Made by a program: the position numbers and the translations under genes
The notes under the pieces: model-generated
Told to the model about the DNA's origin: nothing
The model's database searches: none
Seen by the model: the letters and a program-made list of their open reading frames with translations, nothing else
NCBI GenBank assembly: GCA_036507075.1
Contig: DASXQR010000041.1
Span: 1 to 38,000, forward strand
DNA: 38,000 bases
Direction of reading: 5' to 3'
Origin: Acidobacteriota bacterium
GTDB lineage: Bacteria; Acidobacteriota; UBA6911; JACQSX01
Shown here: piece after piece, positions 280 to 16,974 of the stretch
Layout of the letters: each line of letters begins with the position of its first letter
Position numbering within the stretch: position 1 is the first letter of the stretch

Positions 280-1899
280 ATGTCTCGTTCGTTGAAGGGA
301 TCGTTCAGGCAACATACGGGAAGACTCACCCGGCGCGATTTCTTCAGGGGCGGAAGCTTGCTGGCGTTTCCGGCGTTATTTGGCAAGACGGCAACGGCGG
401 TTCCCGAGCCGCCTTCAGGAGCGCTGCGGATAGGGCCGGATATTTACCAGTCGATTGGCGTTCGCCCCTTTATCAGCGGCACCGGTACGTTGACGGTCAA
501 CAGCGGATCACTCGAACTGCCTGAAGTGCGGGCGGCCATGGATGCAGCCGCCCGGCATATGGTTCAATTGGACGAGCTGATGGAGGCGGTTGGGAAACGC
601 CTGGCTGAACTGACGGGCGCGGAATGGGGAATCGTTACTGCCGGGTGCGCCGCGGCTATGACCCATGCGACCTCTGCCTGTGTGGCTGGCGGTAATCCGG
701 ACAAGCATATTCGATTGCCGAACACCGAGGGGCTCGGCAAAGACGAAGTGATCATTCCCAAACACTCTCGCAACAACTACGATGCGGCGATCCGCGCGGT
801 GGGAGTCCGGATCATTGAGGTGGACAACGCACAGGAACTGGAGGCTGCCATCGGGCCGAGGACGGCAATGATTTATATCTTTGCGGGCCCTCGCGCCGAT
901 GCCGGACCTCCGTCCTTTGAGGAAATCATCCGCATCGCGCGGCAGAAGAACATTGCGGTGCTGACAGACGCCGCAGCCGAAGTGCTGACGATACCAAATG
1001 TTCATCTGCAGCGTGGCTCCACTCTGGTGTGTTACAGCGGCGGCAAACAACTTCGCGGCCCGCAGTGTTCCGGTTTGTTGCTGGGACGCAAGGATCTGGT
1101 GAAAGCCGCGTGGATACACAGCGCGCCGCATCATGGATTCGCGCGAAACATGAAAGTCGGCAAGGAAGAGATCATCGGAGCGCTTGCCGCTGTAGAGTCC
1201 TGGGTGAAACGGGACCACAAGGCCGCATGGCAGAAAATGCTGGACGCGATGGACCATATTGCCAAGCGGGTTTCTTCCGTTCCCGGCGTCACAACGGAGG
1301 CGCGAGAGCCGCCCGGGCTTTCCAACCGAAGTCCGGTGCTGAGTGTCCGCTGGGATGCAGCCAGGCTCGGCATCACCGGCCAGCAGGTATCGCAAATTCT
1401 CGATGCCACCGATCCCCGTATCCTGGTGGGAAGTTCGCGAGGCGCGCAAAATGGAATCTCGATCACGGCTTTCAACGTCGCGCCCGGAGACGAAAAAGTG
1501 GTGGCGGACCGTCTCTATGCCGTCCTTTCGGCGACGCGCGACCTGAAGTCCCAGGAGCCCAAGCCACCGGTTGCTGACCTGACGGGCATGTGGGACGTTC
1601 ACATAGAATTTGCGGCAAGCACCGGTGAGCACTCCCTGTCGCTGCGGCAGCAGGAAGGGCGGATAGAGGGGATCCATCGCGGCGAGTTCGTGGCTCGCGA
1701 TCTTACCGGCACCATCGATGGCGACGCGGTTCAATTGCGCAGCAGTCTGCCGGAACGCGCGATCGGAAATGCCCTTTCGTTTACTTTCACGGGGAAAATC
1801 GAGGGTGAAACCATGTCAGGCGGACTTGATATGGGCGAATACCTGAAAGCGCGTTGGAGCGCCAAGAGGCACCGCTACGGGCAAGCTGAGCGTGTCTAG
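280..1899 (+). CDS. SelA/DgaE-like PLP-dependent enzyme (probable ammonia-lyase) with Tat signal and a C-terminal beta-rich extension
   Basis: RBS GGAGGG before ATG; Tat motif TRRDFF; SelA-family segments GVRPFISGTGTLTVNSGS, TDAAAE, YSGGKQLRGPQ (PLP lysine) and MKVGKEEI; about 110 extra C-terminal residues. Confidence 0.85.
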   Translation: MSRSLKGSFRQHTGRLTRRDFFRGGSLLAFPALFGKTATAVPEPPSGALRIGPDIYQSIGVRPFISGTGTLTVNSGSLELPEVRAAMDAAARHMVQLDELMEAVGKRLAELTGAEWGIVTAGCAAAMTHATSACVAGGNPDKHIRLPNTEGLGKDEVIIPKHSRNNYDAAIRAVGVRIIEVDNAQELEAAIGPRTAMIYIFAGPRADAGPPSFEEIIRIARQKNIAVLTDAAAEVLTIPNVHLQRGSTLVCYSGGKQLRGPQCSGLLLGRKDLVKAAWIHSAPHHGFARNMKVGKEEIIGALAAVESWVKRDHKAAWQKMLDAMDHIAKRVSSVPGVTTEAREPPGLSNRSPVLSVRWDAARLGITGQQVSQILDATDPRILVGSSRGAQNGISITAFNVAPGDEKVVADRLYAVLSATRDLKSQEPKPPVADLTGMWDVHIEFAASTGEHSLSLRQQEGRIEGIHRGEFVARDLTGTIDGDAVQLRSSLPERAIGNALSFTFTGKIEGETMSGGLDMGEYLKARWSAKRHRYGQAERV

Positions 1900-1985
1900 G
1901 GACAATAGCGTGATGGTTATATCTAGCGACTGTCGATTCGTCACATTGCATTTCAATGTGGCCGGCTTCCAGGAGGGTTAATGCT

Positions 1986-3302
1986 ATGAGACCGAAAGCC
2001 TCGCGTGCGGCAGTGTTATTTCTTGTTTTTTGCTGGACGAACAATCTTTACGCGCAGCAAAAATACGATCTCCTCTTGAAGGGCGGCCATGTCATTGATC
2101 CGAAGAACAAGATCAGTGCCGTTCGTGATGTTGCTATTGCGAACGGAAAGATCGCGGCCGTGGCAGCCAGAATCGATCCTGCTGAGGCCTTCAAGGTGGT
2201 TAACGTTTTGGGATTTTATGTAACGCCCGGCCTCGTAGATATTCACGTTCATGTCTTTGCAGCGACCGGCGAACGAGGCTCCTATGCCGGTGATAACAGC
2301 GTTTATCCGGACGGCTTTACTTTCCGCGCAGGAGTCACCACGGTTGCCGACGCAGGATGTGCAGGCTGGAGAAATTTTGAGGAGTTCAAGCAGCGCATTA
2401 TCGATCGGTCCAAAACTCGGGTACTGGCGCTCCTCAATATTGTCGGCAACGGCATGCGGGGCGAAAGGTTTGAGCAGGATCTGGCAGACATGGAATCCAA
2501 GCCGACGGCGGAAATGGCGCTTCGCTACAAGGGCTTGATTGTGGGTGTCAAAACAGCCCACTACGCCGGCCCGGAATGGGCACCGGTTGAGCGCGCCGTT
2601 GAAGCGGGTACGCTGGCGAATATTCCCGTGATGGTGGACTTTGGGGTCAATCGACCGGAGCGCCCCATGAGCGAACTGGTAACCCGCAAGCTCAGGCCGG
2701 GAGATATTTACACTCATTGTTATTCCGGGCTTCGCAATGAACAGGATGAGTCCGGCCGTGTGAACCCCGCGCTTTGGGAAGGCAGAAAACGGGGAGTGAT
2801 TTTTGATGTAGGCCATGGAGGAGGCAGCTTTGCCTGGCGGATTGCAGCGCCGGCCGTGAAAGCGGGGTTCCTTCCTGATTCCATTTCTACCGATCTCCAC
2901 ATCGGCAGCATGAATGCCGGCATGAAGGACATGCTCAACGTGATGGACAAATTTCTGGCGATGGGGCTGTCGATCGAAGATGTGGTTCTTCGCTCCACCT
3001 GGAATCCTGCCCGTGAGATCAAGCAAGAAGAACTGGGGCAGCTTTCTCCCGGTGCTTTGGCGGATATCGCAGTACTTCGGCTCGAAAAAGGCAATTTCGG
3101 CTTTGTAGATATTTATGGAGCCCGGTTGCGAGGAACGCAGAAGCTCACTTGCGAGTTGACGCTTCGAGATGGAAAAGTGGTCTACGATCTCAATGGAATT
3201 ACGCGCCCGGACTGGGACAAGCTGCCGCGCGATTATAGACAAACCGGCGATGCCAGGTGGGACGCCGTTACACCCGCGCCGATCCGCCGAAGCCCGCGGT
3301 AA
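1986..3302 (+). CDS. Amidohydrolase/deacetylase family metallohydrolase (dihydroorotase-like), secreted
   Basis: RBS AGGAGG at about 1971 favours ATG 1986; Sec signal MRPK...NLYA/QQ; motifs PGLVDIHVH, KTAH, YTHC, FDVGHGGGSF, ISTDLH, GALADIAV. This family commonly neighbours SelA-like genes. Confidence 0.88.
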   Translation: MRPKASRAAVLFLVFCWTNNLYAQQKYDLLLKGGHVIDPKNKISAVRDVAIANGKIAAVAARIDPAEAFKVVNVLGFYVTPGLVDIHVHVFAATGERGSYAGDNSVYPDGFTFRAGVTTVADAGCAGWRNFEEFKQRIIDRSKTRVLALLNIVGNGMRGERFEQDLADMESKPTAEMALRYKGLIVGVKTAHYAGPEWAPVERAVEAGTLANIPVMVDFGVNRPERPMSELVTRKLRPGDIYTHCYSGLRNEQDESGRVNPALWEGRKRGVIFDVGHGGGSFAWRIAAPAVKAGFLPDSISTDLHIGSMNAGMKDMLNVMDKFLAMGLSIEDVVLRSTWNPAREIKQEELGQLSPGALADIAVLRLEKGNFGFVDIYGARLRGTQKLTCELTLRDGKVVYDLNGITRPDWDKLPRDYRQTGDARWDAVTPAPIRRSPR

Positions 3303-3316
3303 GAAGTGAGCCGGTT

Positions 3317-3457
3317 TTTTGCCACGAAGCCACGAAGACACGAAGCTTTCATATTTATCTCGAAGAGGAAACTTCTCGAAATCCTCGATAATGTTCCGAG
3401 AAGTGCCACTTCTAGATTGATTTTAGACCTTCGTGGCTTCGTGGCTTCGTGGCAAAA
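3317..3457. repeat. Inverted-repeat element with (CACGAAG)x3 octamer arms between convergent genes; possible bidirectional terminator
   Basis: ttttgccacgaagccacgaagacacgaag (3317-3345) and cttcgtggcttcgtggcttcgtggcaaaa (3429-3457) form a 29-bp IR with 1 mismatch. There is an inner acttctcg/cgagaagt stem. Confidence 0.85.
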
Positions 3458-3503
3458 GGGCGCCAACCCCGGTGCAGGATCAGAGCGCCATGCCGAGGCG
3501 ACG

Positions 3504-4223
3504 TCACCGCTGCTGTGCCGGCGGCCTGAGGAACTCCGACGGCGGCAGCGCCCGGCGTGTAAACCTCGCCATGCGGATGGCTCCCTGAAAATAAAAAACT
3601 TTGTTGATCCGCATTCCAACCGAGGTATGCCCCGATCCATGAGGAGCAAGGTAAAGTTGGGCCGAGCCTTCCTGAACGCCGTCTACATAGTTTCTGAATT
3701 CCTGACCGTCATATACCGAGGCGACGTGGTACCAGGCTCCGAGCGGATGCAGCGCCTTCCGGTTCATCAGCGCTTTGCTCTCGGTTCCTGATTGGTTATA
3801 GCTGTCCAGAAACCATTGATCGCCGACCACGCGGATTTCAAACAGCATCCGGTTGCCTGTGTCAGCGCCGGTCTGAGGATCCTGCTCACTCAAGTGAAAC
3901 CACCGCTGCTCTGTCTGGCCTCCGTCGGGACGAAAGATGGCTTCCCATGTGAAAGTCTTGGCGCCCGCCAGAGGGTGGTTGTCAATGAACAGCGCATCAT
4001 CCACACCATCGAACCTGACAGCCTTGCCGACGGGCGAATCGATGACTTCGGGTTGCCCGAGTACTGTGGTCCTGTGGCCGCCAATGTTCTCCAGCCGGTC
4101 GAAGATCCACACGGCGCTCTCGGCAGGTTGACCCGAAAGTGCGCCGCTCTTAGAACCGCTCTGCAATGCGGCCAGAATGGCCAGTGCCACCACCGAGTCG
4201 CGGAGAATTGTTTCCAACGTCAT
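3504..4223 (-). CDS. LamG-like jellyroll (concanavalin A/glucanase-like) domain protein, secreted
   Basis: Hydrophobic N-terminus; GKAVRFDG, FTWEAIFRP, WYHVASVYDG, YVDG, FQGAI are typical Laminin_G_3 motifs; 4-bp ATGA overlap with the upstream cytochrome gene. Confidence 0.85.
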   Translation of the reverse strand: MTLETILRDSVVALAILAALQSGSKSGALSGQPAESAVWIFDRLENIGGHRTTVLGQPEVIDSPVGKAVRFDGVDDALFIDNHPLAGAKTFTWEAIFRPDGGQTEQRWFHLSEQDPQTGADTGNRMLFEIRVVGDQWFLDSYNQSGTESKALMNRKALHPLGAWYHVASVYDGQEFRNYVDGVQEGSAQLYLAPHGSGHTSVGMRINKVFYFQGAIRMARFTRRALPPSEFLRPPAQQR

Positions 4224-5026
4224 TGTGCCCTCCGCTTTGGTCGCAAAGAACTGAGATACCCGACCAGGTTTTCCAGTTCGTCTTTGGGAAGCTCCGCGTA
4301 TGCCGGCATTAGCGATTTCCTGGGCAGCTTGATCTCGTTGAGCTCACTCTTCATGAAAGACATCAGATTGCCGTTCACATCGCGCATATGGACCGAGTAT
4401 TCGTCTTCGTTAAGATGAATCCCCTTGCTGCTCTTCCCCGTTACGCTGATCACCTCCACTGTCCGATAGTCCAGCGGAATATCAGCGCTCGGCTCCAAAA
4501 GAGATTGGCGCAAATGCCGTACCGCGCGCTTCGCTCCAATGTCGGAAAGGTCCGGTCCCGAGAAGCCGCCTTTCCCGTCGATACTATGACAGAGGGCGCA
4601 GCCGTTGTCCCGGTAGACGAGCGCACCTGCGACGGCGTCGCCGGTGACGGGCTCGGGCAAACCTTGACGGCCCAATTGCTGCACGTACGCCACCATGCGC
4701 CAAACGTCGGCTTCCGGCGAATTGAATGTGCCCGGCATTTCCGTGTTGGGAATGCCGTTTCGTATGATGAGGAATATTTCACGGTCCGAGCTGCCGTGTC
4801 GAAACCGGCCTGTGTTCAAGGCGGCACCGCGGCCCCCCTCGCCGTTCTGGCCATGACAATGGCCGCAGCGCCCGGTAAACAGTCTGCGCCCGGATTCCAA
4901 GTCCGCCGCTGAGGAATATGGGTTTGCCTCAGGCAGGGAGGATCGAGGCTGGACTGCCGCTCTTTGCGCAGGCGTTGGCAGCACGAAATTCATCCAGCAC
5001 CACGCAATCAGAAATGTCTTTCGCAT
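4220..5026 (-). CDS. Diheme c-type cytochrome (putative heme-binding domain type), likely electron acceptor of the PQQ dehydrogenase
   Basis: Signal peptide; CGHCH and CALCH heme motifs; GIPNTEMP, GPDLSDIG and SLMP distal Met regions; lies immediately downstream of the PQQ gene. Confidence 0.9.
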   Translation of the reverse strand: MRKTFLIAWCWMNFVLPTPAQRAAVQPRSSLPEANPYSSAADLESGRRLFTGRCGHCHGQNGEGGRGAALNTGRFRHGSSDREIFLIIRNGIPNTEMPGTFNSPEADVWRMVAYVQQLGRQGLPEPVTGDAVAGALVYRDNGCALCHSIDGKGGFSGPDLSDIGAKRAVRHLRQSLLEPSADIPLDYRTVEVISVTGKSSKGIHLNEDEYSVHMRDVNGNLMSFMKSELNEIKLPRKSLMPAYAELPKDELENLVGYLSSLRPKRRAQ

Positions 5027-5038
5027 CCAAAGATCTGT

Positions 5039-6706
5039 TCACTCGAGTCCGAAAGCGATCAGCACGTCTCCAATCGGGATCGTGATCAACTGCTTGCCCC
5101 GGCTTAGAAATGTAATCGGGCTGGCATACACTCGATCGCCGCCGTTGAAATGCCAGAGCTCCTTGCCGGTACGAGCATCCAGGGCATAAAAGTTCCCGCT
5201 TGGCGTGGCCGAGAAAACCAAGTTCCCCGCCGTGGACAGCACGCCCGCCCACGGTGGCGACAGGATGCGGTGCTCCCACTGAATTTTCCCCGTCTCCGGA
5301 GTCATGGCGATAAGTTTGCCCCAGCTCTCCTCGGGCCGAAAACGTGCTCCCCCGCCGCCGCCACCGCCGAAGTAGGCCTCGCCCGGTTGGAACTCGAGCG
5401 CGTCAGTCTTGAAGAAACGACGCCGCTCCTCGCGCGCACTGACATAGAGGAGCTTCGTGTTGGGATTGTAGCTGGGCGACATCCAGTTGTTCCCGCCGTC
5501 CACGCCGGGCCAGATCGAATCGTTGCCTTCCTGCGTCGGCTCCTGACCGGGATTCACAACCGGACGGCCCTTCTTATCTATCTCCTTTGCCCAGGTCTGC
5601 TTCACATAGGGTTTGGCCAGCAGGAATTCACCCGTTTGACGGTCGAGGACATAATAGAAGCCGTTGCGGCTGGGCACGACGACCAGTTTGCGCAGGCGCC
5701 CGTCGAACGTCGAATCGAGCAGAACCGGAACCTGCGTGGCGTCCCAATCGTGCGTGTCGTGCGGAGTGAATTGGAAATACCATTTCAACTTTCCTGTGTC
5801 CGGATCCAGCGCGAGCAGCGAGCAGGAGTACAAGTTGTCTCCGGGGCGAACATCGCCGTTGTAGTCCGGTCCGGGATTGCCCGTTCCCCAATAGAGCAGG
5901 TTCAATTCCGGATCGTAGGAGCCGGTGATCCACGTCGACCCTCCGCCGTGCCGCCATGAATCACCTCCCCAGGTCTCCGAGCCCGGTTCGCCCGGCGCCG
6001 GTATGGTCCAGAAGCGCCAGGCGCGCTCGCCCGTTTTCGCGTCGTACGCATCGAGGAAGCCGCGAATGCCCCCTTCAGCGCCCGCGATCCCCGCGATCAC
6101 CTTGTCCTTGACCACCAGCGGCGCTGCGGTGGCCGTGTAGTTGAGCGCGGGATCCGCAATCTCCTTCTTCCAGAGCATGCGGCCGGAACGGGCATCGAGC
6201 GCGATCAGCTTTGCATCCAGCGTTGTGATGAAAAGCGTCGTGCCAAGGATCGCGAGTCCCCGGTTGACCTGCCCACAGCATGTGTAGAGGCCGGCGGGAA
6301 CTTTGTATTCGAAGGTCCAGAGTGCGCGTCCGGTTTCTGCGTCAAGCGCGATCACGTCGCTCGGAGGACGCGTGACATACATGAGACCATCCACGACAAT
6401 GGGAGTGGTCTCGACCTTGGGGCGATGCATCTGATAAATCCACCTGGCGCGCAGCCCGTGGACGTTCTCGGCCGTGATCTGGTTCAAACTGCTGTAATGA
6501 TGGCTGCGATAATCGCCGCCGTACGTCAGCCAGTTGGCGGGCTCCTCGGGTGCTTTGAGCAGCCTTTCATAAGTGACCGGCAGGCCCCGGGGCGATGGAG
6601 ACTGCGCAAGAGAAAGTGTCACCACAAAGACACAAAGGACACAAAGCGGCGCTAATGGGGTCAGGTCTTCATAATTCATTTTTGCTCGTCTAAATCGGAC
6701 GTCCAT
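5039..6706 (-). CDS. PQQ-dependent dehydrogenase, methanol/ethanol-type beta-propeller
   Basis: NWLTYGGDY, ETTPIVVDG, vicinal CC (TCCGQVNRG), GAEGGIRG, WGTGNPGP, PHDTHDWDA, repeated ALDAxTGxxxW. Start uncertain: ATG 6706 or 6679, both inside the MITE-like element. Confidence 0.9.
   Translation of the reverse strand: MDVRFRRAKMNYEDLTPLAPLCVLCVFVVTLSLAQSPSPRGLPVTYERLLKAPEEPANWLTYGGDYRSHHYSSLNQITAENVHGLRARWIYQMHRPKVETTPIVVDGLMYVTRPPSDVIALDAETGRALWTFEYKVPAGLYTCCGQVNRGLAILGTTLFITTLDAKLIALDARSGRMLWKKEIADPALNYTATAAPLVVKDKVIAGIAGAEGGIRGFLDAYDAKTGERAWRFWTIPAPGEPGSETWGGDSWRHGGGSTWITGSYDPELNLLYWGTGNPGPDYNGDVRPGDNLYSCSLLALDPDTGKLKWYFQFTPHDTHDWDATQVPVLLDSTFDGRLRKLVVVPSRNGFYYVLDRQTGEFLLAKPYVKQTWAKEIDKKGRPVVNPGQEPTQEGNDSIWPGVDGGNNWMSPSYNPNTKLLYVSAREERRRFFKTDALEFQPGEAYFGGGGGGGARFRPEESWGKLIAMTPETGKIQWEHRILSPPWAGVLSTAGNLVFSATPSGNFYALDARTGKELWHFNGGDRVYASPITFLSRGKQLITIPIGDVLIAFGLE
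6618..6646. repeat. Single arm of the 8/9-mer tandem repeat family (ACAAAG core) inside the PQQ gene signal peptide
   Basis: gtcaccacaaagacacaaaggacacaaag; same architecture as the arms at 3317, 12092, 21252 and 22998; reads LCVLCVFVV on the minus strand. Confidence 0.7.
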
Positions 6707-6751
6707 TCAAAATCCACCCAAAAATGAATTATGAAGACCTGACCCCATTAG
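6652..6751. mobile_element. 100-bp MITE/REP-like element with 33-bp perfect terminal inverted repeats and a 5-bp flanking direct repeat CGGCG
   Basis: ctaatggggtcaggtcttcataattcatttttg (6652-6684) and its exact reverse complement (6719-6751); cggcg at 6647-6651 and 6752-6756. Confidence 0.75.
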
Positions 6752-7947
6752 CGGCGAGCGGCGAGCTGCCTCTGGATCGAAGCGCGAACCGATGGCAGGT
6801 ATCGCAGAGCATTGGCATAGTAAACCTTGCGAAGCACATCGTCGGGCAGGCCGATACCGTAGATTCTCCAGCGGCCGTGCAGCGGCGCGCCAGTCGCCGA
6901 GCGAAGCTGGGCCGGATGATCGAAATGCTCGTCATAGGTTTCCAGGAACCTCCAATGAGGCACCCAGAACTCTTCGATCCCACGGCCGGGATTGCCGTCG
7001 GAGCCGAAGAGGATCCGGTCCTGATACTTGAGGAAGAACGCGCGAATCATTCGGGGAGCCCGGCCCAGGTCCTGAACGGTCGCCGAGATTTCAACGTCGG
7101 CATTAGGATACTTGTCCAGCAGCGCGGCCACTTTATCCATGTCGTAGTACAGCATGGCCATGTGCGCGTTGACAAAGCGAGTCCTGGGATGCCTGGCGTG
7201 CATGTTCTCGCGCGCCTTTTCGATCACGTCGGGAGTCGGCTGGCCGGTCTTGTAGTAGTTCCCTTCCGGGTTGCTGCGCCAAAGGCCGGCTTCATACCGT
7301 TCATTCTCGGGGCCGATAGGTAGAAAGCGGCCATACGAGTCGCTTATATGGATCATGACGGGCTTGCTGTGCCTGGCACACATTTCCCAGACAGGATCGA
7401 ATCGCGGGTCATCGGCCTGGATGTAGGTGCCGTCGGGATTCTTCAGATCGAGCCCCAGCACCTTGTTGATTTTCAGCCCCGCAGCGCCCGCCAGAAAACA
7501 GCGCTCCAGTTCCGCGGCGGTCCTTGCCGGCCAGCCCGGCGTATTGATCCCTTCAAAGTTCAGCCTTGCGAAATGAATGATGCGGTCCCGGAACGGCTCG
7601 CCCACCTTCATATTCTGGTCGAAGGTCTTGCCAAATCCACCGTCCATGTTGCAGATCACGCCGATACCGGTATCGTCCATCAGCTTGATCATTTTTTTAT
7701 AATCTTCGGCAGTCCTGACTCGCCCGCCATGGAAGTGGAAATCGATCGCCGGAAACTTAGCCCGTGAAATGTGGGTCCTGGGGAATTTCATCAGTGCCTT
7801 GGGCATGGTCGGCACTTCTGGCGAAGGTTGAAAGTCGGGATGCGAAGGAAACCTCGGGGCCTGGGATTTCGGGACGCCCGTCTGACCGGAGGAAGTGAAG
7901 CTGCAAATTGCAATCAGCGATGCCAAAAATGGCAACCAGCGACGCAT
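6748..7947 (-). CDS. Amidohydrolase_2 family protein, secreted
   Basis: RBS AGGAGG before ATG 7947; signal MRRWLPFLASLIAICSFTSSG/Q; IDFHFH, AGLKINK, PVMIHISD, VNAH, ILFGSD, LRKVYYANA. The stop codon TAA lies inside the MITE arm. Confidence 0.88.
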   Translation of the reverse strand: MRRWLPFLASLIAICSFTSSGQTGVPKSQAPRFPSHPDFQPSPEVPTMPKALMKFPRTHISRAKFPAIDFHFHGGRVRTAEDYKKMIKLMDDTGIGVICNMDGGFGKTFDQNMKVGEPFRDRIIHFARLNFEGINTPGWPARTAAELERCFLAGAAGLKINKVLGLDLKNPDGTYIQADDPRFDPVWEMCARHSKPVMIHISDSYGRFLPIGPENERYEAGLWRSNPEGNYYKTGQPTPDVIEKARENMHARHPRTRFVNAHMAMLYYDMDKVAALLDKYPNADVEISATVQDLGRAPRMIRAFFLKYQDRILFGSDGNPGRGIEEFWVPHWRFLETYDEHFDHPAQLRSATGAPLHGRWRIYGIGLPDDVLRKVYYANALRYLPSVRASIQRQLAARR

Positions 7948-8097
7948 GGTTACACCTCCTGTTTGGAAAGGGGAGTATTGTGACACAAGGCAACCTGGAA
8001 ATCATATCGGAACGTCCCGATCACCGCAGAGGCGGTGAATGCAACGTGCGTGTGTCCGGCCGCAAATGATAAATAGAAAGGAAACCAGGAGACCCTT

Positions 8098-8570: not shown

Positions 8571-11500
8571 CTAATAATAAAACTTTGCCGCGAGTTGGAG
8601 CGCGCGGGCGCCAGCGGCGGTGGTGATTCGGCCGAAGTTGCTGCCGCCGAAGGCGGTGTTCGGGTTGCCAAACTGCGGACTGTTTGTCACGCTGTAGGCC
8701 TCCAACCTCAATTGCAGGCGTCTCTGTTCCGCGAACTGGAAGTTCTTTGAAAGCGTCACGTCCTCGTTTATGATGCTCGGTCCCCGGTAACTAGACAGCG
8801 TCCGCGGCGCCGTTCCGAGCTCGTCAGGCCCGACCTCCTCAAATGCTTTCAGGTTGAAGTATCCGTTAATCTTGCTCTTTACCGACCCGGGCAATCTCGG
8901 ATCGCCGATCAGGTTGGGACGCTGGTCGCCCTGCCACAAGTTGTTTTCGTCTTGGACGATTGCCAGCGGCGTGCGCGAACTGGCCGTAATGATCGAGCTC
9001 AACTCCCATCCGCCGATCACAGCGTCAAGGATTCTGTTCATGTTCTTTCCAAACGTCCGGCTCCGGCCCACCGGCACGTGATAATCGAAGCTGAGGACGA
9101 ATCGCTGCGGCACGTCGAATATCGACAAAGAACGCTCGTTGCGCAGATGCGTCAGGTCCTGGAGGCTCGACTGCCCGGCGATAAAGTCCACATCGGTACC
9201 GGCTACGTCGGAATCGCTGATCATCTTAGAAATCGTGTAGTGCGCGATCACGCTCAGGTCATGAGAAAACCGCTTCTCATACTTCATCTGCAACGCGTGA
9301 TAGATCGAATTACCGTTATTGGGAGTCGCCCGATAACCGCCCACCGAGCCCGAGTACTGCGGGAAGGGCCGAAGCAGCCGATCCCGCGTCACCGTCGGAG
9401 CGCTCAGGATCGATCTCGGATCGGTGATGACCCCAAAGAACGGATTCGGCACCTGTTTGCTGAGGTCATCCTGCCCGATAGGCCAGTACTTCGGATCAAG
9501 GTTGTTGAGATCTGACAGGTAGTCCCCTGTCCCGAAGTACAGGTGTGTGCCCTTGGTGCCGACATAATTGAATTCCACCACGCCGCTGCCCGGGACCTCC
9601 CGCTGGATCGATAAATTCCACATCTGGTACTGCGGGTTGTCATCCTTGCGGAAATTGGCGCCGGCGTCGAGACCGAGGAACGCAGCCGGATCGCGGCCGG
9701 GAGGAAGAATCAAACCGTTCGGCCACGGGTTGGAAAATGTGGCGTACCGGGTGAAGTTCCGGTCACGGCTCCACTGGATCGGGGTGTCAATCAACCCGAA
9801 GGCCGATCCCACCTCCCCTTTGATCGTGTGGCGGGAGGTGGTGTAGAAGATACCGTACCCGCTGCGGATCGATGTTTTGTCATTGAAAGCATACGCGAAG
9901 CCGATTCGCGGCTGGACGTTGTTATAGTCGCCGTCGAACGGGCTCCTGGTGTCGTCGTCCACGAACTTCATCGCGCCTTTCAGATTGGGATACACCGCCT
10001 TCATCTTATCGGCGATCGGAGACGGCGCTTCGGTGTCAAACCAGTTCAGACGATTGAAGCGATCGGTTCGGGGAATGTCGAAGTCATAGCGAACGCCGCC
10101 ATTCAACGTCAGCTTCCGAGTAACTCTCCATTCATCATTGATGAATGTCCCGAAATAACCGGAAGCCTGGCAGGTTGGATAGTCGATGGTCAAGACTCCG
10201 CCGCTGCCCCAGCCAAGCAGCGCTGAGGCGATGGCATTGCCCTGGCTCGAGCTGCTCACGATCGGGTTCAGCGCTGTCTGATTGCGGGTGAAGTTAAATC
10301 CACCCTGCGGTGTGTTCGGCTGGAAATAATTCTCATGAAGCTTGCGGTACTCGGCGCCGGTCTTGAGTGTGTGACCCCGAACGATTTTCGTGATCGCGCC
10401 CGATGTCTGGTAGACGTCCTCGAAGCGGTGAATGATCGCAAATCCGCCTGCGCCGAGCGCCAAATAGCCAGTGGGGTTGAATCTTGGGAATGCCAAAACT
10501 CCGGCGGTCTGAATGATTTTGGGCAGGCCCAACGTGGTCTGGTCGAAACCCATGCTGAGCGGGTCCCGTATCGACTTTACCCGCAGGGCGCCGGCACGCC
10601 CGGTGATGATCGTGGTCGGGCTGTGGGTCCTCGTGTAGTCGACGATGAAGTTCTGGTTTCGGTTTCTTCCCGGATTGATGTTGGCGGCGATGTTGCCAAT
10701 CAGGTTGGCCGGATTACTGGAGCCCCAGTCCACGCTGTACCGGACAGTAAACCGCTGCTTCTCGGAAACGTTGTGATCAATCTTGGCATCCATCTTGTGG
10801 CCGACGCTCTCATTGACCCCTTGGGCGAAGAAATTGTTCACGTGCGTAAAGGCATTGCCGTTCGAAGTGGGCGCAGGATACAACTTGAGAAATCTCAGCG
10901 TGATCGGATCTTGTCGCTGCAGCGGAACAATGTTTCCCGGGAACTGGGTCCGCACCCTTACACCGCTCGCATTCACAACAAGACTGTCGGGATCGTAGAC
11001 CGGCGACAGATTGCCATTGGCAAGACGCGTATCGGAAAAGTCACCTGCCAACTCCTTGGCCGTGGGAACAGTGGTCGTGGTTGTGGTGGCGGCAAAATTC
11101 TTGAAATAGTCAAAAGTCGCAAAGAAAAAGGTCCGGTTCTTCCCGTTGTACAACCCGGGGATAGAGAAAGGGCCGCCGATGGTTCCGCCCAGGTTGTCGC
11201 GCTTGCCGTTGGCCAACCTAACCCCGTTCCTGTTGGAGAACCAGTTGTTGGCGTTCAATTTGTTATCGCGACGGAAGTAGTAGCCGACACCGTGGATCTC
11301 GTTGGTTCCGCTCTTGGAAACCATGTTGATGATCGTGCCGCCCGTGTTTCCATATTCGGCGCTGAAGTAGTTCGTCTGAATCTTGAATTCCTCGATGACG
11401 TCTATTGTGGGCGTGTACTTCACGTCCGTGATGCCCCCGTTCTGCTCGATGCCGGTCAGCGCCCCGCCGTCCAGCATCACCTCCGAAGCGTTGTTGCGAA

Positions 11501-12041
11501 CTCCGTTGGAAATGAAGGCAACGCCGCCGGTCGCTCCGGTAACGCCGGGCGCCAGAGTCACCAGTGAAAGCGGGTTGCGACCCTGGTTCGGCACGGAGCT
11601 GATGATCTTGTTTTCCACCACCTGGCCCAGCGTTGGCGAAGTCGTATTGAGCAGAGGCTCGGACGCCGTGACCTGCACGCTGCTGGTCACTTCACCGACC
11701 GATAGCTCGACATCGACTTTGGCCTGCTGTGACACTTCGAGCCGGAAGGGACCCTGCGAGGCTTTCTTGAATCCGGGCACTTCCACCGTGAGGGTATAGC
11801 GTGCCGGGGGCAAGGTCGGGAATACATACCGGCCGGCCGAATCGGACAACGTGGAATATTCAACATTGCGATCAGCGTCGGTGACGGTGACGGTGGCGCC
11901 CGGCACTGCCGCTCCACTGGAATCGGTAATCGTTCCCTGGATCGATCCCGTATAAGACTGAGCCCATGACGGGACCGGGAATGACAGGATTAACAATGAC
12001 AGAACTGAGAACAAGCAGAAGAACTTCGGGCGGTTGGGCAT
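8571..12041 (-). CDS. TonB-dependent receptor (Oar-like) with N-terminal carboxypeptidase regulatory-like domain
   Basis: Signal ending SWA/Q; GSIQGTITDSSGAAVPGATV; plug GRNPLSLVTLAPGV, EFKIQTNYFSAEYG, KSGTNEIHG; C-terminal LQLAAKFYY; ATG 12041 follows a purine-rich RBS. Confidence 0.93.
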   Translation of the reverse strand: MPNRPKFFCLFSVLSLLILSFPVPSWAQSYTGSIQGTITDSSGAAVPGATVTVTDADRNVEYSTLSDSAGRYVFPTLPPARYTLTVEVPGFKKASQGPFRLEVSQQAKVDVELSVGEVTSSVQVTASEPLLNTTSPTLGQVVENKIISSVPNQGRNPLSLVTLAPGVTGATGGVAFISNGVRNNASEVMLDGGALTGIEQNGGITDVKYTPTIDVIEEFKIQTNYFSAEYGNTGGTIINMVSKSGTNEIHGVGYYFRRDNKLNANNWFSNRNGVRLANGKRDNLGGTIGGPFSIPGLYNGKNRTFFFATFDYFKNFAATTTTTTVPTAKELAGDFSDTRLANGNLSPVYDPDSLVVNASGVRVRTQFPGNIVPLQRQDPITLRFLKLYPAPTSNGNAFTHVNNFFAQGVNESVGHKMDAKIDHNVSEKQRFTVRYSVDWGSSNPANLIGNIAANINPGRNRNQNFIVDYTRTHSPTTIITGRAGALRVKSIRDPLSMGFDQTTLGLPKIIQTAGVLAFPRFNPTGYLALGAGGFAIIHRFEDVYQTSGAITKIVRGHTLKTGAEYRKLHENYFQPNTPQGGFNFTRNQTALNPIVSSSSQGNAIASALLGWGSGGVLTIDYPTCQASGYFGTFINDEWRVTRKLTLNGGVRYDFDIPRTDRFNRLNWFDTEAPSPIADKMKAVYPNLKGAMKFVDDDTRSPFDGDYNNVQPRIGFAYAFNDKTSIRSGYGIFYTTSRHTIKGEVGSAFGLIDTPIQWSRDRNFTRYATFSNPWPNGLILPPGRDPAAFLGLDAGANFRKDDNPQYQMWNLSIQREVPGSGVVEFNYVGTKGTHLYFGTGDYLSDLNNLDPKYWPIGQDDLSKQVPNPFFGVITDPRSILSAPTVTRDRLLRPFPQYSGSVGGYRATPNNGNSIYHALQMKYEKRFSHDLSVIAHYTISKMISDSDVAGTDVDFIAGQSSLQDLTHLRNERSLSIFDVPQRFVLSFDYHVPVGRSRTFGKNMNRILDAVIGGWELSSIITASSRTPLAIVQDENNLWQGDQRPNLIGDPRLPGSVKSKINGYFNLKAFEEVGPDELGTAPRTLSSYRGPSIINEDVTLSKNFQFAEQRRLQLRLEAYSVTNSPQFGNPNTAFGGSNFGRITTAAGARALQLAAKFYY

Positions 12042-12091
12042 GATCTTCTCCCTTCTTGCAAGGACGGACAATCAACGGCGCTTCGGGAAAA

Positions 12092-12111
12092 TTCACCACA
12101 AAGACACAAAG
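12092..12111. repeat. Partial ACAAAG-core repeat arm supplying the RidA C-terminus and stop codon
   Basis: ttcaccacaaagacacaaag; the tcaccacaaagacacaaag core also occurs at 6619-6637; the minus strand reads F-V-S-L-W-stop. Confidence 0.7.
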
Positions 12112-12554
12112 TTTCCGGGAATCCCGCCGGCCGCCGCAATGGTCGTGTGCACGGGAGGCTCGGACCCAAAGCGGCCCCGGAACATCTCGTTCATGCCATC
12201 GTAGTCCTTCAAGTCGTTTAGATAGACGTTGCACTTCAGGACCTTGTCCATAGACGAGCCGACACTCTCGAGACGCTGCTGGATCTGATCGAGCACGTGC
12301 TTGGTGTGCGCTTTGATATCGCCTTCAAAATGAGCGCCGATGCCCGCGATAAACAGCAGGTTGCCGTTGGAAACAATGCGGCTGAACAAAGGCGGCTTCT
12401 CCGGTTTTCGGCCATCTCTGTAGTGGACTTTCTTGACCGGCTTATCCTGGGTCGCAGGCTTGTCCTGAGCCGCCGCGGGAACCGCCGCAGCCGTGGCAGC
12501 CGCAGCCACAGTCACTCCCCGCCCGATAAAACTCCGTCGATTTGTTTTGTTCAT
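12093..12554 (-). CDS. RidA/YjgF family protein with Tat signal; C-terminus appears truncated (possible pseudogene)
   Basis: NRRSFI Tat motif plus an Ala-rich h-region; GNLLFIAG, VLKCNVYLNDLKDYDGMNE, PPVHTT. The usual Arg is His and the terminal VEI strand is missing. Confidence 0.8.
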   Translation of the reverse strand: MNKTNRRSFIGRGVTVAAAATAAAVPAAAQDKPATQDKPVKKVHYRDGRKPEKPPLFSRIVSNGNLLFIAGIGAHFEGDIKAHTKHVLDQIQQRLESVGSSMDKVLKCNVYLNDLKDYDGMNEMFRGRFGSEPPVHTTIAAAGGIPGNFVSLW

Positions 12555-12635: not shown

Positions 12636-13754
12636 TCATACTTCCGAATTGACGGCCTGAATCAGTGCTTTGATATAGCCGTACCCAAAAGCAAAGGACT
12701 GGAGTCTCCCGGGGTCGTCAGCATGTTGGGGCATATGATCCGGACAGATCGCGCCCGGAAATTGCCCGTCTCTTAGAATTCGCATGATCTTGAAAAAATC
12801 CATGTCGCCTTCATCGGGGAACACTTCGGCAAAATTGTGAAGCCCTCCGCGGATGTTGCGCATGTGAATCTGATGGATTTTTCCCTTTTCGCACAAATAT
12901 TGGACAATCGGTAAAATCTCTGCGTTCGGGTTCCTTAACCCCTCACCGGTTGTTCCCAGACACAATTGGAATCCATTGTGCGGGCTGTTCACAATTGATT
13001 CATATCGTTTGATTGCTTCAAACACGGATGGAGAGTCCCAGTTATCCGCGCCCTGATAGCCGGGCGGAAGTCCGGGTGGATCATAAGGATGGCAGGCCAT
13101 TCGTACGTCGTATTGTCTGGCCGCCGGTATTACCTTTTCCAGGAAATAGGCGATGCGTTCCCAGTAATCTTCGGAGCTAACCCTCCCCGAAGGTCCAACA
13201 GGCAGGCTTTCCCAATTGTCCTCAAGCTTAAAGGCGGCGTAGACAGCTCCGCCTCGCCCTGGTGTTTGCCCGTTTCGCCGTATCGGTATTACGGTCCAGT
13301 GATAAGTTATGATCTTTACGCCCACTTGGGCAGCCTTTTGAATATTGCCGATTATGTCGTCTAGTTTTCGATCCCGCTCCAACCCCTTTCTCAAAGTAAT
13401 ATAGTCAGCATCCATTCTTATGGCTTCGAGAGATACGCCATACTTATCGCAGTTATCCTTCATCATTCTCAGTTCATCAAGATCCCATCCTCCGTCGGGG
13501 GCACGTTTTGGCATCTGCACCGTTAGATGCCTGACTCCGTAGCGCAGGTTGTACTCCAGGTTCTCCTTGGACGTGATACCGGCCCGGGGACCTCCTGCCA
13601 CGCTATGGTAGTCGCCGCCAACATGCATCAGAGTATTTTTCCTTGGAGCGCGCGCTGCCTGCACTGAAGCTGTCTTCGAGGTTGCAGCGCCGGCCACGCC
13701 GGCGCTGATAATTCCACCGAGCAGCTTTTTACCCAGCTCTCTTCTTCTCATCAT
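12636..13754 (-). CDS. Mannonate dehydratase (UxuA)-like sugar-acid dehydratase with Tat-like signal
   Basis: RRRELGK N-terminus; YWERIAYFLEKVIPAA, MACHPYDPP, NGFQLCLG, IHMRN, EVFPDEGDMD, ICPDHMP, FAFGYGYIKAL. Confidence 0.85.
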   Translation of the reverse strand: MMRRRELGKKLLGGIISAGVAGAATSKTASVQAARAPRKNTLMHVGGDYHSVAGGPRAGITSKENLEYNLRYGVRHLTVQMPKRAPDGGWDLDELRMMKDNCDKYGVSLEAIRMDADYITLRKGLERDRKLDDIIGNIQKAAQVGVKIITYHWTVIPIRRNGQTPGRGGAVYAAFKLEDNWESLPVGPSGRVSSEDYWERIAYFLEKVIPAARQYDVRMACHPYDPPGLPPGYQGADNWDSPSVFEAIKRYESIVNSPHNGFQLCLGTTGEGLRNPNAEILPIVQYLCEKGKIHQIHMRNIRGGLHNFAEVFPDEGDMDFFKIMRILRDGQFPGAICPDHMPQHADDPGRLQSFAFGYGYIKALIQAVNSEV

Positions 13755-14161
13755 AGACGTGGAGTATCGACCTTGATGGACCGACCGGCCCTCTTGCGCT
13801 GCTCACTATCCAGAGTCACAAGCGGAATGCCGAGTTGATATGCCACGGCAACGTAAGCGGCATCGGCGCCGCGCAACATTAAATCCGCTGCCAGCCGAGC
13901 TGCAAGCTCTGCAAACGATGCATCCAATGCCACGAGACGCAGCGAGCCAAGCTGCAGCATACCCTCGACTGCCTGGTGCGCCAGGCCGGGCTTTCCGGTT
14001 TGCCTGGAGACAGCCCCCGCCACTTCCATCAGCACGATCGCTGGAGCGACGATCGGTTGTCCGTGTGAAACTCGTTCACCCAGCCACCTGGTACAGACTG
14101 CGTGGTGCACATCACCTGCGACGAAGCGGCTGACCCACACACTCGCATCCACAACGACCAT
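13751..14161 (-). CDS. vapC: Type II TA toxin, VapC/PIN domain
   Basis: VVDASV, MEV, RGADAAYVAVA, LVTLD acidic PIN motifs; 136 aa, directly downstream of an antitoxin. Confidence 0.9.
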   Translation of the reverse strand: MVVVDASVWVSRFVAGDVHHAVCTRWLGERVSHGQPIVAPAIVLMEVAGAVSRQTGKPGLAHQAVEGMLQLGSLRLVALDASFAELAARLAADLMLRGADAAYVAVAYQLGIPLVTLDSEQRKRAGRSIKVDTPRL

Positions 14162-14164
14162 TGA

Positions 14165-14422
14165 CTATCGTCGCCCCTGCCGCACCGCCTTTGCCGCGTT
14201 GATTTTTCTGGGCCAATGCCTGCCGATTTCGGCGGCGAGCTGGTCCAGATTTGCCCACACCGCTTTTTCTCTCCTTAATACCACATGAGCCGGTCTTACG
14301 GGCGTGAGCTGAGCGACAACTTCCCCGCGATAAGTAATGCCAATCGGTTTTCCAGCCTCCCGGAGCTTCCGGATGACGCGGCTGGTCTCATTTTTCAATT
14401 GCCGCACGCCTATCGTCTTCAT
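14165..14422 (-). CDS. Type II TA antitoxin, Phd/YefM family
   Basis: MKTIGVRQLKNETSRVIR...IGITYRGEVVAQLTP is the prevent-host-death signature; 85 aa, upstream of vapC. Confidence 0.9.
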   Translation of the reverse strand: MKTIGVRQLKNETSRVIRKLREAGKPIGITYRGEVVAQLTPVRPAHVVLRREKAVWANLDQLAAEIGRHWPRKINAAKAVRQGRR

Positions 14423-14428
14423 AGTTTT

Positions 14429-14480
14429 ATGTACCTACATTTGTAGCTACATTATCGGACCTTGGAGGCCTTCGAAGCAA
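14429..14480 (-). promoter_or_regulatory. Putative TA promoter and autoregulatory operator
   Basis: Minus strand TTGCTT-N18-GATAAT, overlapped by the imperfect 24-bp palindrome atgtacctacatttgtagctacat (14429-14452), which contains the perfect palindrome TGTAGCTACA. Confidence 0.6.
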
Positions 14481-14496
14481 ATGTTCAATTGTTTAC

Positions 14497-15759
14497 TTAC
14501 CGCTTGCGTGTCTTCACGTGCCGGTCAAACCAGTCGAAGGCGTCGGCCTGCATTTGCCGATCGAATTTGTGTCCGCCCGGATAAAATTTCGATCGGTACA
14601 TGTCAGGCGCACCGCCGCGCCGGAAGGTTTCATGCAACATCTCGTCGGCCCGTTTCATCTCCGCCACGGTGTAAAGCGGGTCCTCGGTACAGTTAAGGAC
14701 CATCGTTGCCGCCGGCGCGCGCAGGGCCAGAATCTCCGGAAAATCCAGCTCTCGCGGGAGCAGAGGCACATAGGTCATCCAGGTGTGTGTGAAACATTTG
14801 TCCAGAAGAAAGTCACGCCAGGTTGTCATAAAGCCGACAGCGATCGCGCAGCGAATGCGATTGTCGAGGCCGCCGAGGAAAACGGTTCGCATCCCCCCGC
14901 CGGACAGACCTGCGCAACCAATGCGCGAAGCGTCCACGTCGTTACGTTTCGCCAGCACATCCAGCGCTCGCTGGTCTTCCGGGACGTAAACGCCGGGCCA
15001 GGTTGTTCCGGCACTCAAGAGGCTCTTTTCCATAATGTGTTCATGTGCCCCGGCGAAGGCGTTGTATTTGTTTACGCCTTCCACGTCGTCCGGTTCAGGA
15101 TCCCCTGCGCCCTGCCGGATGCGCTCGGGCACATCGGCTGCCAAGACTCGCCGGCTGGCGAACGGAAAGGTGTCATGAACGAGCACGGCATAGCCGCGCT
15201 TTGCAATTTCATTTGCCCAGGCAACCCCTTCGTAATAGTGCTCCTGGTGCTGCAGTTGTATTTTCCAGGAGTTCCCGTCGATCCTTGCTATCTTTCGCCA
15301 ACCGAGAAATTTATTCCCGGCATGGTCATGCAGGCCCAGTATTGCCGGCAGGCGTTCAGTGGAGCCGGCCGGCTTCAGGAAGACCGCTTCGGTCCTGGGT
15401 CCGGCAGGCAACTGCCAGGAGAGCCGTTCGACATGCAGGCCGTCATAAGTGCCTTGAAATTCAACCCGGACCTGCGGTGCTCCGCCAAGATCGACTGGAG
15501 CGATACGCTCCAGCACGCGCCGGCGGGCCACGGATCTCCAACTGTCAAGGTTCTTCCACTTTCCTGTTCGGAAGGAGAGCGAGGATGGACCACTTCCCAG
15601 AACCTTATCTGCGAGCCACGGTCCGTATATTCCCGTCATATTGGGGCGCATCGGCGTTTGCTGAGGATCGCTCTTTTCAGAGCGAGGCCCTTGTGGATCA
15701 ATTCTCCGCCCAAACAGCAACGCGGTCGTTAAAAGAACAACAAAGAAGAGAGAGCGCAT
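14497..15759 (-). CDS. Secreted alpha/beta hydrolase (dienelactone hydrolase/acetyl esterase-like)
   Basis: Signal peptide; LPAILGLHDH, GYAVLVHD, nucleophile elbow GLSGGG, EDPLY, YPGGH. Confidence 0.85.
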   Translation of the reverse strand: MRSLFFVVLLTTALLFGRRIDPQGPRSEKSDPQQTPMRPNMTGIYGPWLADKVLGSGPSSLSFRTGKWKNLDSWRSVARRRVLERIAPVDLGGAPQVRVEFQGTYDGLHVERLSWQLPAGPRTEAVFLKPAGSTERLPAILGLHDHAGNKFLGWRKIARIDGNSWKIQLQHQEHYYEGVAWANEIAKRGYAVLVHDTFPFASRRVLAADVPERIRQGAGDPEPDDVEGVNKYNAFAGAHEHIMEKSLLSAGTTWPGVYVPEDQRALDVLAKRNDVDASRIGCAGLSGGGMRTVFLGGLDNRIRCAIAVGFMTTWRDFLLDKCFTHTWMTYVPLLPRELDFPEILALRAPAATMVLNCTEDPLYTVAEMKRADEMLHETFRRGGAPDMYRSKFYPGGHKFDRQMQADAFDWFDRHVKTRKR

Positions 15760-15894
15760 ATAGATACCTCAGTGGCGACCGATCGCGGTCAGCCTTGCAG
15801 TCGGTCAAGGAGTCTTGCTTGTGATTTACACCCCGGCCCCTAATGGCTTCGATGACCGAAAGTCATTCTTCGGAGCGGGCTGCAGTGCTGTATT

Positions 15895-15993
15895 CTGCCA
15901 CGAAGGCACGAAGACACGAAGGTTTCTGTATTTACCCTAATGACCGATGACGCGTTCGGTTCCGGCTCTGCTGGGCTGTGCCTCTGCGGTGAA
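15895..15993. repeat. Degenerate or hybrid 8/9-mer repeat element (left arm CACGAAG type, right arm GCAGAG type)
   Basis: ctgccacgaaggcacgaagacacgaag at 15895-15921 closely matches the 3317 arm; gcctctgcggtgaa ending at 15993 matches the 8417-type terminus. Confidence 0.6.
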
Positions 15994-16098
15994 GCGCCGC
16001 CTCGGGGGGCGCCACCAAACTAGACCACTACAAATGTCCTGATAGAATATACAATCTCATCGAAGCCCGAAGCGATGCTTTCAACAAAAGGAGGCGCA

Positions 16099-16974
16099 AT
16101 GACTATGAAGCGAATTGTGTTTTCCATCCTTGTCTGTACGATCCCCTGTTTGACTCCGTGCCTGGCTCAGACGCAACAGACGCCGGCGAACCCTGCGGCG
16201 CGTATCTACAATACGGTGAAGCAGAAATTGAAGGAGGGCAAACAGGTTGTCGGGGGCACCGTGTCGTCGTCAGACCCGGAAATCTATTGCGCCATGGCCA
16301 ACGCGGGGTTCGATTACCTCTGGATCGAGATGCAGCACAGCCCGCTGAACTACCAGGAAGTGGCCAGAATGATCCGGGCATGTAAGGGCGCCCCTGCGAT
16401 TCCTTTTATTCGCGTGCCGGACGCGACAGAAGGCGATATTCAGAAAGCGACGGACATCGGAGCGCTGGGCATCATCATTCCCATGGTTGAGACTCTTGAA
16501 AAGGTCCAGGCGGCGGTCAAGTTCGCTAAATATCCGCCCCTGGGAAGCCGCAGCCAGGGCGGTGGCCAATATGGCGCGCTCTGGGGCGGTGACTACCGCC
16601 AGACTGCCAACGACAACGTCATGATTGTCGCCATGATTGAGTCACCGGCAGGGGTCGCGATCGCGGATAAGATAGCCGCCCTTCCCGGAGTCGACGTAGT
16701 ATTTGTCGCAAGCACGGACCTCGGGAGCTTTTCGGGGTATCGACAGGGTGACCCGCAATACGAAGCGCTTGTCACCAAAATCCATGATGCTACCTTGAAT
16801 GCCGGGCTGAAGGTCGGCGGACCGCTGGCTTGGAAGAACCGAAAGGGATTCAGCTTTTTTCAAGGTCCAGGCGAGACAAACCTGATACGAACAGGAGCGC
16901 AAATAACGCTGGGAACCACCGCTGCTTCCCGGCCAGGCGTTGCCCCAACCGAGGGGGCGGACCACAAGCAATAA
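16099..16974 (+). CDS. HpcH/HpaI class II pyruvate aldolase family protein with Sec signal peptide
   Basis: RBS AGGAGG before ATG 16099; signal MTMKRIVFSILVCTIPCLTPCLA/Q; GFDYLWIEMQHSP, PFIRVP, DIGALGIIIPMV, KYPPLGSRS, MIESPAG, PGVDVVFVASTDL. Confidence 0.9.
   Translation: MTMKRIVFSILVCTIPCLTPCLAQTQQTPANPAARIYNTVKQKLKEGKQVVGGTVSSSDPEIYCAMANAGFDYLWIEMQHSPLNYQEVARMIRACKGAPAIPFIRVPDATEGDIQKATDIGALGIIIPMVETLEKVQAAVKFAKYPPLGSRSQGGGQYGALWGGDYRQTANDNVMIVAMIESPAGVAIADKIAALPGVDVVFVASTDLGSFSGYRQGDPQYEALVTKIHDATLNAGLKVGGPLAWKNRKGFSFFQGPGETNLIRTGAQITLGTTAASRPGVAPTEGADHKQ

Follow-up and report, generated by a model that had tools for sequence, protein, structure and literature searches.

Mosaic of exported enzyme genes on an Acidobacteriota contig includes a candidate periplasmic module for deacetylation and deamination of amino-sugar acids

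The window analysed here, 38,000 nucleotides of Acidobacteriota DNA, is the entire contig C41 (DASXQR010000041.1) of a genome of 6.1 Mb and 96% completeness and is also found in soil metagenomes. An earlier note on its 17 kb region (280–16974) proposed that ten exported proteins form one periplasmic route from an N-acetylhexosamine to small products. Our data show a mosaic and not one pathway: the region is pieced together from genes that have export signals and are conserved separately. It is composed of a core pair (a DgaE-like pyridoxal phosphate (PLP) enzyme and a deacetylase), a four-gene operon around a pyrroloquinoline quinone (PQQ)-dependent dehydrogenase, a stretch with UxuA-like, RidA and TonB-receptor genes and a toxin-antitoxin-like insertion, and single genes. 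All open reading frames (ORFs) named in the note were recovered and their family labels hold in profile scans; likewise, no kinase, phosphotransferase system (PTS) or inner-membrane transporter is present among the 21 main ORFs of the window scanned. The rest of the window encodes largely secreted proteins as well, according to the same type of scan. Since a search for promoters and terminators gave results at chance level (8 versus 8.1 and 21 versus 21.1), transcription units are defined here by gene orientation alone.

The first gene of the core pair (280–1899, + strand) encodes a fold-type I PLP enzyme of the DgaE/Cap15/SelA-like group with a twin-arginine translocation (Tat) leader, TRRDFF. 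Its PLP-lysine motif, SGGK, occupies residues 253–256, and both D-A-A and S-G-G-K are invariant in 67 rows of the alignment. The modelled protein (pLDDT 91.5) has a SelA-like fold-type I structure with the PLP lysine, and the nearest solved structures are Cap15 (8T7J; Z 38.9, rmsd 2.1, 351 residues aligned, 29% identity) and D-glucosaminate-6-phosphate ammonia-lyase, DgaE (7LC0/7LCE; Z 38.1, rmsd 2.4, 356 residues aligned), with SelA far below them (Z 26). SelA function was rejected: the protein scores 25.2 with TIGR00474, whose cut-off is 267.9, and the true selA is located on contig C100. An extra C-terminal all-beta domain of ∼105 aa (window 1560–1890) matched no Pfam family; all its atlas leads are below 0.9, the best being a weak one to an OAA-type lectin (0.82), and its single-sequence model was unusable (pLDDT 45). 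The closest relatives of the enzyme are found almost exclusively in Acidobacteriota, and the window genome encodes three DgaE-like paralogues.

The second gene (1956–3302, + strand) encodes an amidohydrolase/deacetylase of the Atu3266/EF0837 (COG3964) type with a Sec-type leader. Enzymes of the Atu3266 type act on alpha-acetyl carboxylates and on N-acetyl-D-Ser/Thr. The window protein passes the NF006689 profile (429.5 bits, cut-off 371) and stays below the cut-off of NF006560 (60.7 versus 340); its best solved relatives are PDB 8JE0, 2OGJ (Atu3266), 8WZY and 2ICS (EF0837). Both parts of the core pair also occur in a single polypeptide: P0135 is a natural signal-less fusion of 762 aa that joins a deacetylase, 47% identical to the window protein, to a DgaE-like domain.

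To see which neighbours are conserved, we used 80 loci around orthologues of the DgaE-like enzyme. RidA is found in 54 of these, the deacetylase in 41, a TonB receptor in 28, a PQQ dehydrogenase in 12 and a cytochrome in 10, while HpcH (3 loci, two of the proteins cytoplasmic-looking), UxuA-like (2), amidohydrolase_2 (1) and esterase (1) genes are scarce. Within 4 kb the numbers are 53 for RidA, 39 for the deacetylase, 37 for both and 24 for the receptor, and 30 of the 59 loci having 4 kb on each side contain both deacetylase and RidA. The usual gene order is receptor, PLP enzyme, deacetylase, RidA; the core operon is intact, for example, in L049 and L064. Conserved co-occurrence, which the note had put forward as a check of its route, is therefore confirmed for the trio of DgaE-like enzyme, deacetylase and RidA, but not for the UxuA-like, HpcH, esterase and amidohydrolase_2 genes, which seldom or never lie near the core. 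A panel of 300 other Acidobacteriota genomes (5–7 candidates scored per genome, thresholds varying by query, related genomes not independent) gives a similar picture. Where the PLP enzyme is of the closest form (15 genomes), the deacetylase is always present. A DgaE-like enzyme, of which panel genomes carry up to five copies, accompanies the deacetylase in 25 of 29 genomes, the UxuA-like protein in 16 of 26, the PQQ dehydrogenase in 20 of 50, HpcH in 6 of 28 and close HpcH in 1 of 13. With the thresholds used, none of the 300 genomes matched all five of these proteins. Recurring neighbour clusters of the core, among those scanned, include no kinase, PTS or 2-keto-3-deoxy-6-phosphogluconate (KDPG) aldolase.

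The window copy of RidA, an orthologue of the third gene of the module, lies ∼9 kb from the core pair (12093–12554, − strand). It retains a Tat leader and is a probable pseudogene. Its conserved Arg, which aligns with that of solved Rid proteins and which we take to be catalytic, is changed to His (base 12148), and from about position 12109 the last beta-strand is replaced by a genomic repeat. This repeat, similar to repetitive extragenic palindromes (REP-like), is located at the break (12093–12111, − strand) and includes a 17-mer for which the genome has 139 exact copies. Both the Arg and the complete last strand are kept in 38 of 39 RidA orthologues and lost in the window copy, which, judging from its sequence, is probably inactive; this damage was missed by the earlier note. 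An assembly error was considered and rejected, as contigs of two runs, both possibly the source of the assembly, share the gapless junction. Contigs from related organisms have a different RidA codon at the His site, and their match ends at the junction. Elsewhere in the window genome (G000, contig C59, 50537–53140) a DgaE-like paralogue with a Tat leader faces a Sec-leader protein that consists of three RidA domains, each intact and each with the Arg kept.

Export calls were based on motif rules, hydrophobicity (11-residue Kyte-Doolittle) and conservation in orthologues. By these heuristics, the claim that five normally cytoplasmic enzyme types carry export leaders stands, and the leaders are conserved. 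A twin-Arg leader is present in 75 of 80 DgaE-like orthologues under one rule (three of the five misses are Tat under another), in 77 of 80 UxuA-like ones and, as a Tat leader, in all 39 RidA proteins. Hydrophobic leaders are found at 20 of 20 HpcH loci and in 40 of the 41 deacetylase rows that could be scored; the remaining row shows a twin-Arg leader, and seven further rows are fragments. The DgaE-like T-RR-D-F-F (residue 17) and the RidA N-RR-S-F-I match the Tat consensus Z-R-R-X-hydrophobic-hydrophobic as given in PMC13673990, whereas the UxuA-like R-RR-E-L-G departs from it by Gly at the last position. Hydrophobicity reaches 2.4 for the window amidohydrolase and 2.5 for HpcH, compared with 0.36–1.6 for seven cytoplasmic-looking ORFs of the genome. 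The strict Tat rule matches 119 of 3998 ORF starts in the window genome versus only 13 internal positions, an excess over chance. TatC is encoded there, and the DgaE-like enzyme and RidA look like Tat substrates in both motif and machinery. Twin-Arg leaders are carried by all three DgaE-like and all four UxuA-like paralogues of the genome; a second HpcH has a hydrophobic leader and two others have none. Signal-less members of the PLP family, many of which were met in the library search, begin directly at the catalytic PLP domain. In a quick tree of 89 rows (64 of 150 library matches, fragments or lacking the anchor motif, were omitted) most of them fall in separate clades, two of which comprise 27 and 16 rows (SH-aLRT 99), and the window enzyme belongs to a group of 19 rows, 14 with Tat leaders. 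Export of these enzyme types is thus a lineage trait, and because it is lineage-wide, their clustering in one island of secreted proteins is less telling than it seems.

The second operon is encoded on the − strand. It consists of a secreted amidohydrolase_2 (6748–7986), for which a lactonase function is only a guess, a PQQ-dependent dehydrogenase (5039–6706) of alcohol type near the acido-empty-quinoprotein group, a dihaem cytochrome c with two CxxCH motifs (4220–5026), likely the electron acceptor of the PQQ enzyme, and a LamG/concanavalin-like protein with a hydrophobic leader (3504–4223). The same order is kept in genome G260 (66–81% identity), on a contig separate from that of its core trio, and the amidohydrolase_2 gene adjoins a PQQ enzyme at four of seven places with close orthologues. 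No PDB relative of amidohydrolase_2 was matched. Oxidation of a sugar by the PQQ enzyme, as proposed in the note, is not borne out: the protein is of the alcohol-dehydrogenase type (TIGR03075, 569.7 over the cut-off of 480; TIGR04528, 560.5 under 650), scores 203 against the 832.65 needed for the sugar (glucose/quinate) dehydrogenases of TIGR03074, and finds its best PDB matches, 6ZCV on top, among alcohol dehydrogenases. Vicinal Cys-Cys and D-x-D motifs are present, D-W-D at 321–323 corresponding to D-F-D of 6ZCV. The latter motif presumably marks lanthanide use. PqqC was not found in the 96%-complete genome, although in one of the searches the control also matched nowhere; PqqB gave a match below the cut-off and PqqD a single weak one. 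PQQ dehydrogenases lie within 4 kb of the core in 7 of 80 loci and of Tat-like genes of the window genome in 5 of 119 cases, a difference of ∼2-fold. As a separate observation, the hydrophobic core of the PQQ enzyme leader, LCVLCVFVVT (window 6606–6640, − strand), is an in-frame copy of the REP-like repeat of this genome; the leader of the G260 orthologue is of the ordinary Ala/Leu kind.

The remaining genes have other partners or none. A TonB-dependent receptor-like outer-membrane protein (8571–12071, − strand; profile match) belongs to a family with 144 tblastn segments in the genome. The UxuA-like TIM-barrel protein (12636–13754, − strand) combines a twin-Arg leader with metal-ligand motifs of the UxuA type: its His, Cys, His and Asp-His motifs align with 3BAN/1TZ9 and its C-terminal Tyr motif does not. 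It scores below the cut-offs of NF003027 (92.7 versus 191) and TIGR00695 (61.5 versus 199.55). The roles of these residues in metal binding and catalysis are assumed by us to be those of UxuA. Around 80 UxuA-like orthologues, 42 of them at loci that reach 6 kb and many on short contigs, a TonB receptor was found 21 times, a DgaE-like gene once, and RidA and HpcH never. The toxin-antitoxin-like insertion (13751–14422, − strand; a PIN domain at 13751–14161 and an antitoxin-like upstream ORF of 84 aa at ∼14168–14422) is outside the pathway; the stop of the PIN gene overlaps the start of the UxuA-like gene. An alpha/beta-hydrolase (esterase) with GLSGG and a hydrophobic leader (14497–15759, − strand) is not linked to the core. 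The HpcH/HpaI-family aldolase (16075–16974, + strand) has a Sec leader and its own transcription unit. It matches PF03328 with 86.5 bits over 25, and its His, Arg, Glu and Asp motifs align as in class II pyruvate aldolases; with the profile cut-offs applied it passes no named equivalog. At 20 HpcH orthologue loci (6–19.5 kb) a PQQ dehydrogenase is present in eight (from among L176–L185 and L194) and a core gene in none. Downstream, 17138–17817 holds a pair of short ORFs that resemble remnants of a broken TonB receptor gene; one of them has a carboxypeptidase-regulatory-like domain. The UxuA-like, HpcH and esterase genes belong to the same exported sugar-acid repertoire and to other routes.

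A known counterpart of the core is the ong pathway of Pseudoalteromonas prydzensis (OngB, OngC, OngD, OngOT, KdgK), which handles GlcNAc1A from oxidised chitin (PMC9537276, PMC12017989). According to PMC9537276, GlcNAc1A is converted to 2-keto-3-deoxygluconate (KDG) in the cytoplasm by a deacetylase, a fold-type III PLP deaminase and RidA, which is essential, before KdgK acts. The ong system shares with the core a deacetylase followed by a PLP deaminase, RidA, TonB receptors and deamination without prior phosphorylation. The ong enzymes, however, are cytoplasmic with a linked kinase and SSS transporter, whereas the core enzymes have export leaders and a kinase is on another contig; OngB is D-aminoacylase-like and OngC of fold-type III, while here the deacetylase is of the COG3964 type and the PLP enzyme of fold-type I. 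A gene set of the ong type (deacetylase, PLP deaminase, RidA and TonB receptor) is present across the loci, and because the gene content matches, we infer that the core follows ong logic with unrelated enzymes and export leaders. In C82:30913–32587 a signal-less gene, fold-type III by eye, stands beside a cytoplasmic RidA and resembles OngC-OngD. With Salmonella DgaE and the TIGR01437/TIGR03583 pair the core has in common the fold, the PLP-lysine motif and an EF0837-type amidohydrolase as partner; unlike DgaE, the window enzyme has a Tat leader, the extra C-terminal beta domain and no PTS or KDPG-aldolase neighbour. DgaE itself is linked to a PTS. Cap15 is described as an O2- and PLP-dependent oxygenase-decarboxylase (8T7J). 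Periplasmic PLP enzymes have a precedent in PvdN and PtaA of Pseudomonas, reported as Tat substrates (PMC13673990), which in that account tailor pyoverdine and are not catabolic lyases. In the literature searched, with few subscription papers covered, no exported deacetylase–PLP enzyme–RidA module was described.

We propose, with a probability of about 0.5, that the core acts in the periplasm on an unphosphorylated N-acetyl-amino-sugar acid and yields a 2-keto-3-deoxy acid, with release of acetate and ammonia. The N-acetyl-hexosaminate would be supplied by the TonB receptor or by a periplasmic dehydrogenase and lactonase, and the two-metal amidohydrolase would take off its acetyl group. The PLP enzyme would fold around its cofactor in the cytoplasm, leave by the Tat system and then eliminate the C3 hydroxyl to give an enamine/imine, whose hydrolysis RidA would speed up; in this organism the intact exported triple RidA of contig C59 might do so, or hydrolysis might be spontaneous. 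Finally, the keto-deoxy acid would either be imported, to be finished in the cytoplasm by a kinase and a KDPG aldolase, or be split by an exported aldolase. Of the single route proposed earlier, what remains is this exported deacetylation-deamination module, favoured by the linkage of the trio, the P0135 fusion and the ong analogue; a single pathway of these ten genes is not supported.

Several results weigh against this proposal. The PLP enzyme is only ∼28% identical to DgaE, fails the cut-offs of that family (NF047797, 154.8 versus 600; TIGR01437, 153 versus 385.3) and is structurally as close to Cap15. Compared with Atu3266 and EF0837, the deacetylase has, in addition to its leader, a His-to-Asp change in one strand-end motif: all 39 rows that could be scored show Asp where 2OGJ has His, and its site is therefore unlike those of solved relatives. 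Neither deacetylase nor RidA is found within 4 kb in 25 of the 80 core loci, which come from related genomes and are not independent samples, and the decay of RidA shows that at least this strain can do without the third gene. Glycoside hydrolases do not recur among the core neighbours scanned, and no AA10 lytic polysaccharide monooxygenase matched in the 96%-complete genome; the identity of the sugar is therefore drawn from analogy and a few loci. It should be noted that the genome has two GH20 matches.

Of the other explanations, the one that survives best, though we consider it unlikely, is that the same module acts on a small N-acyl-beta-hydroxy-D-amino acid (N-acetyl-D-serine or -threonine, or one derived from a peptide or natural product), with a role in nitrogen scavenging or detoxification and not in sugar catabolism. 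OngC is reported to deaminate D-Ser and D-Thr too (PMC9537276), the several DgaE-like paralogues per genome point to several substrates, and other amide hydrolases occur near some core loci; mutarotase, lactonase, CBM9-like and RraA neighbours point to sugars instead. It is improbable that the PLP enzyme performs other chemistry, either O2-dependent oxidation/decarboxylation as in Cap15 or retro-aldol cleavage as in threonine aldolases. Cap15 does tie with DgaE structurally, threonine aldolases come next (Z 22–24), and an oxidase would also produce imines that RidA could hydrolyse. Against this, linkage to RidA is given as the classic mark of PLP dehydratases (PMC7688666), and the recurring core neighbours include no biosynthetic-cluster genes. 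Cap15 itself is biosynthetic and, to our knowledge, has no RidA or deacetylase partners.

Somewhat less probable still is the original idea of a single periplasmic route, made up of all ten genes, that leads from N-acetylhexosamine to pyruvate and an aldehyde. All ten carry leaders, G260 holds both the core and the PQQ operon at 57–81% identity, and all five genomes with a close amidohydrolase_2 have the closest type of PLP enzyme (base rate 15/300; three belong to one genus). PQQ dehydrogenases adjoin the core in varied arrangements at the 12 loci counted above and also in L217–L219 and L230, and a UxuA-like gene stands by the core in L090, L063 and L317. However, the loci of UxuA-like and HpcH orthologues almost never contain core genes, genomes with close HpcH almost never have a DgaE-like enzyme, the excess of PQQ dehydrogenases near the core is ∼2-fold with an enzyme of alcohol type and PqqC not found, and the local RidA is broken. 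Moreover, UxuA and DgaE each yield a keto-deoxy acid and are thus alternatives, not successive steps. Least probable, and only slightly favoured by the off-consensus UxuA-like motif, the use of a 6-phosphate by DgaE itself and the heuristic nature of the export calls, is that the leaders are not functional or the substrates are phosphorylated, as the leaders are kept in nearly all orthologues though flanking sequence varies, signal-less clades exist in the same family and no PTS or kinase is linked.

For the proposed periplasmic module, some loci suggest how its substrate and product might be handled. In L041 (638–10965) a deacetylase, a DgaE-like enzyme, an aldose epimerase, a cytochrome-PQQ fusion, a gluconolactonase, another DgaE-like enzyme (71%) and a fold-type III gene with a Tat leader stand together, all with leaders as judged by eye. 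L040 resembles L041 with an exported RraA aldolase added; the fold-type III gene of both is D-serine-dehydratase-like. Jointly they encode nearly every step of a complete route, and since both are from Bryobacteraceae they count as about one observation; the window genome has most of the parts on several contigs. Lactonase genes are near the core in L217 and L220–L222; lactonase or RraA neighbours occur, in other families, in L217 and L220–L224; and a CBM9-like gene is ≤4.5 kb from the core in nine loci. Oxidative entry and periplasmic cleavage are thus plausible from gene content, where seen with other lactonase and aldolase families than the earlier note had named. In the window genome the genes for a cytoplasmic KDPG aldolase and a PfkB kinase are adjacent (contig C72), and their products could finish the route inside the cell. 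Two further places deserve mention. G000:C152:127400–139400 combines two enolase-superfamily genes that have twin-Arg leaders with a TonB receptor, a gene similar to the L224 lactate permease and an exported RraA-like aldolase (50% identical to that of L040), and is a candidate cluster for periplasmic sugar-acid cleavage and small-acid uptake; G000:C146:18107–19345 is a Tat-leader fold-type III D-serine-dehydratase-like gene, 39% identical to that of L041.

Chitin and cell-wall amino sugars are a large pool of soil nitrogen, and Acidobacteriota are abundant in soil. A more far-reaching and doubtful possibility is that interchangeable exported modules (mutarotase, a PQQ dehydrogenase that may use a lanthanide, with cytochrome c, lactonase, deacetylase, PLP lyase with RidA, and an RraA- or HpcH-type aldolase) give these bacteria a complete ATP-free catabolism of amino sugars in the periplasm, with only small acids and ammonia being imported. 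Known routes take up the sugar or sugar acid first. If our proposal is true, the exported set would free acetate and ammonia outside the cytoplasm and give RidA a periplasmic job, and a function could be given to a widespread family whose present labels, selenocysteine synthase and dihydroorotase, are wrong.

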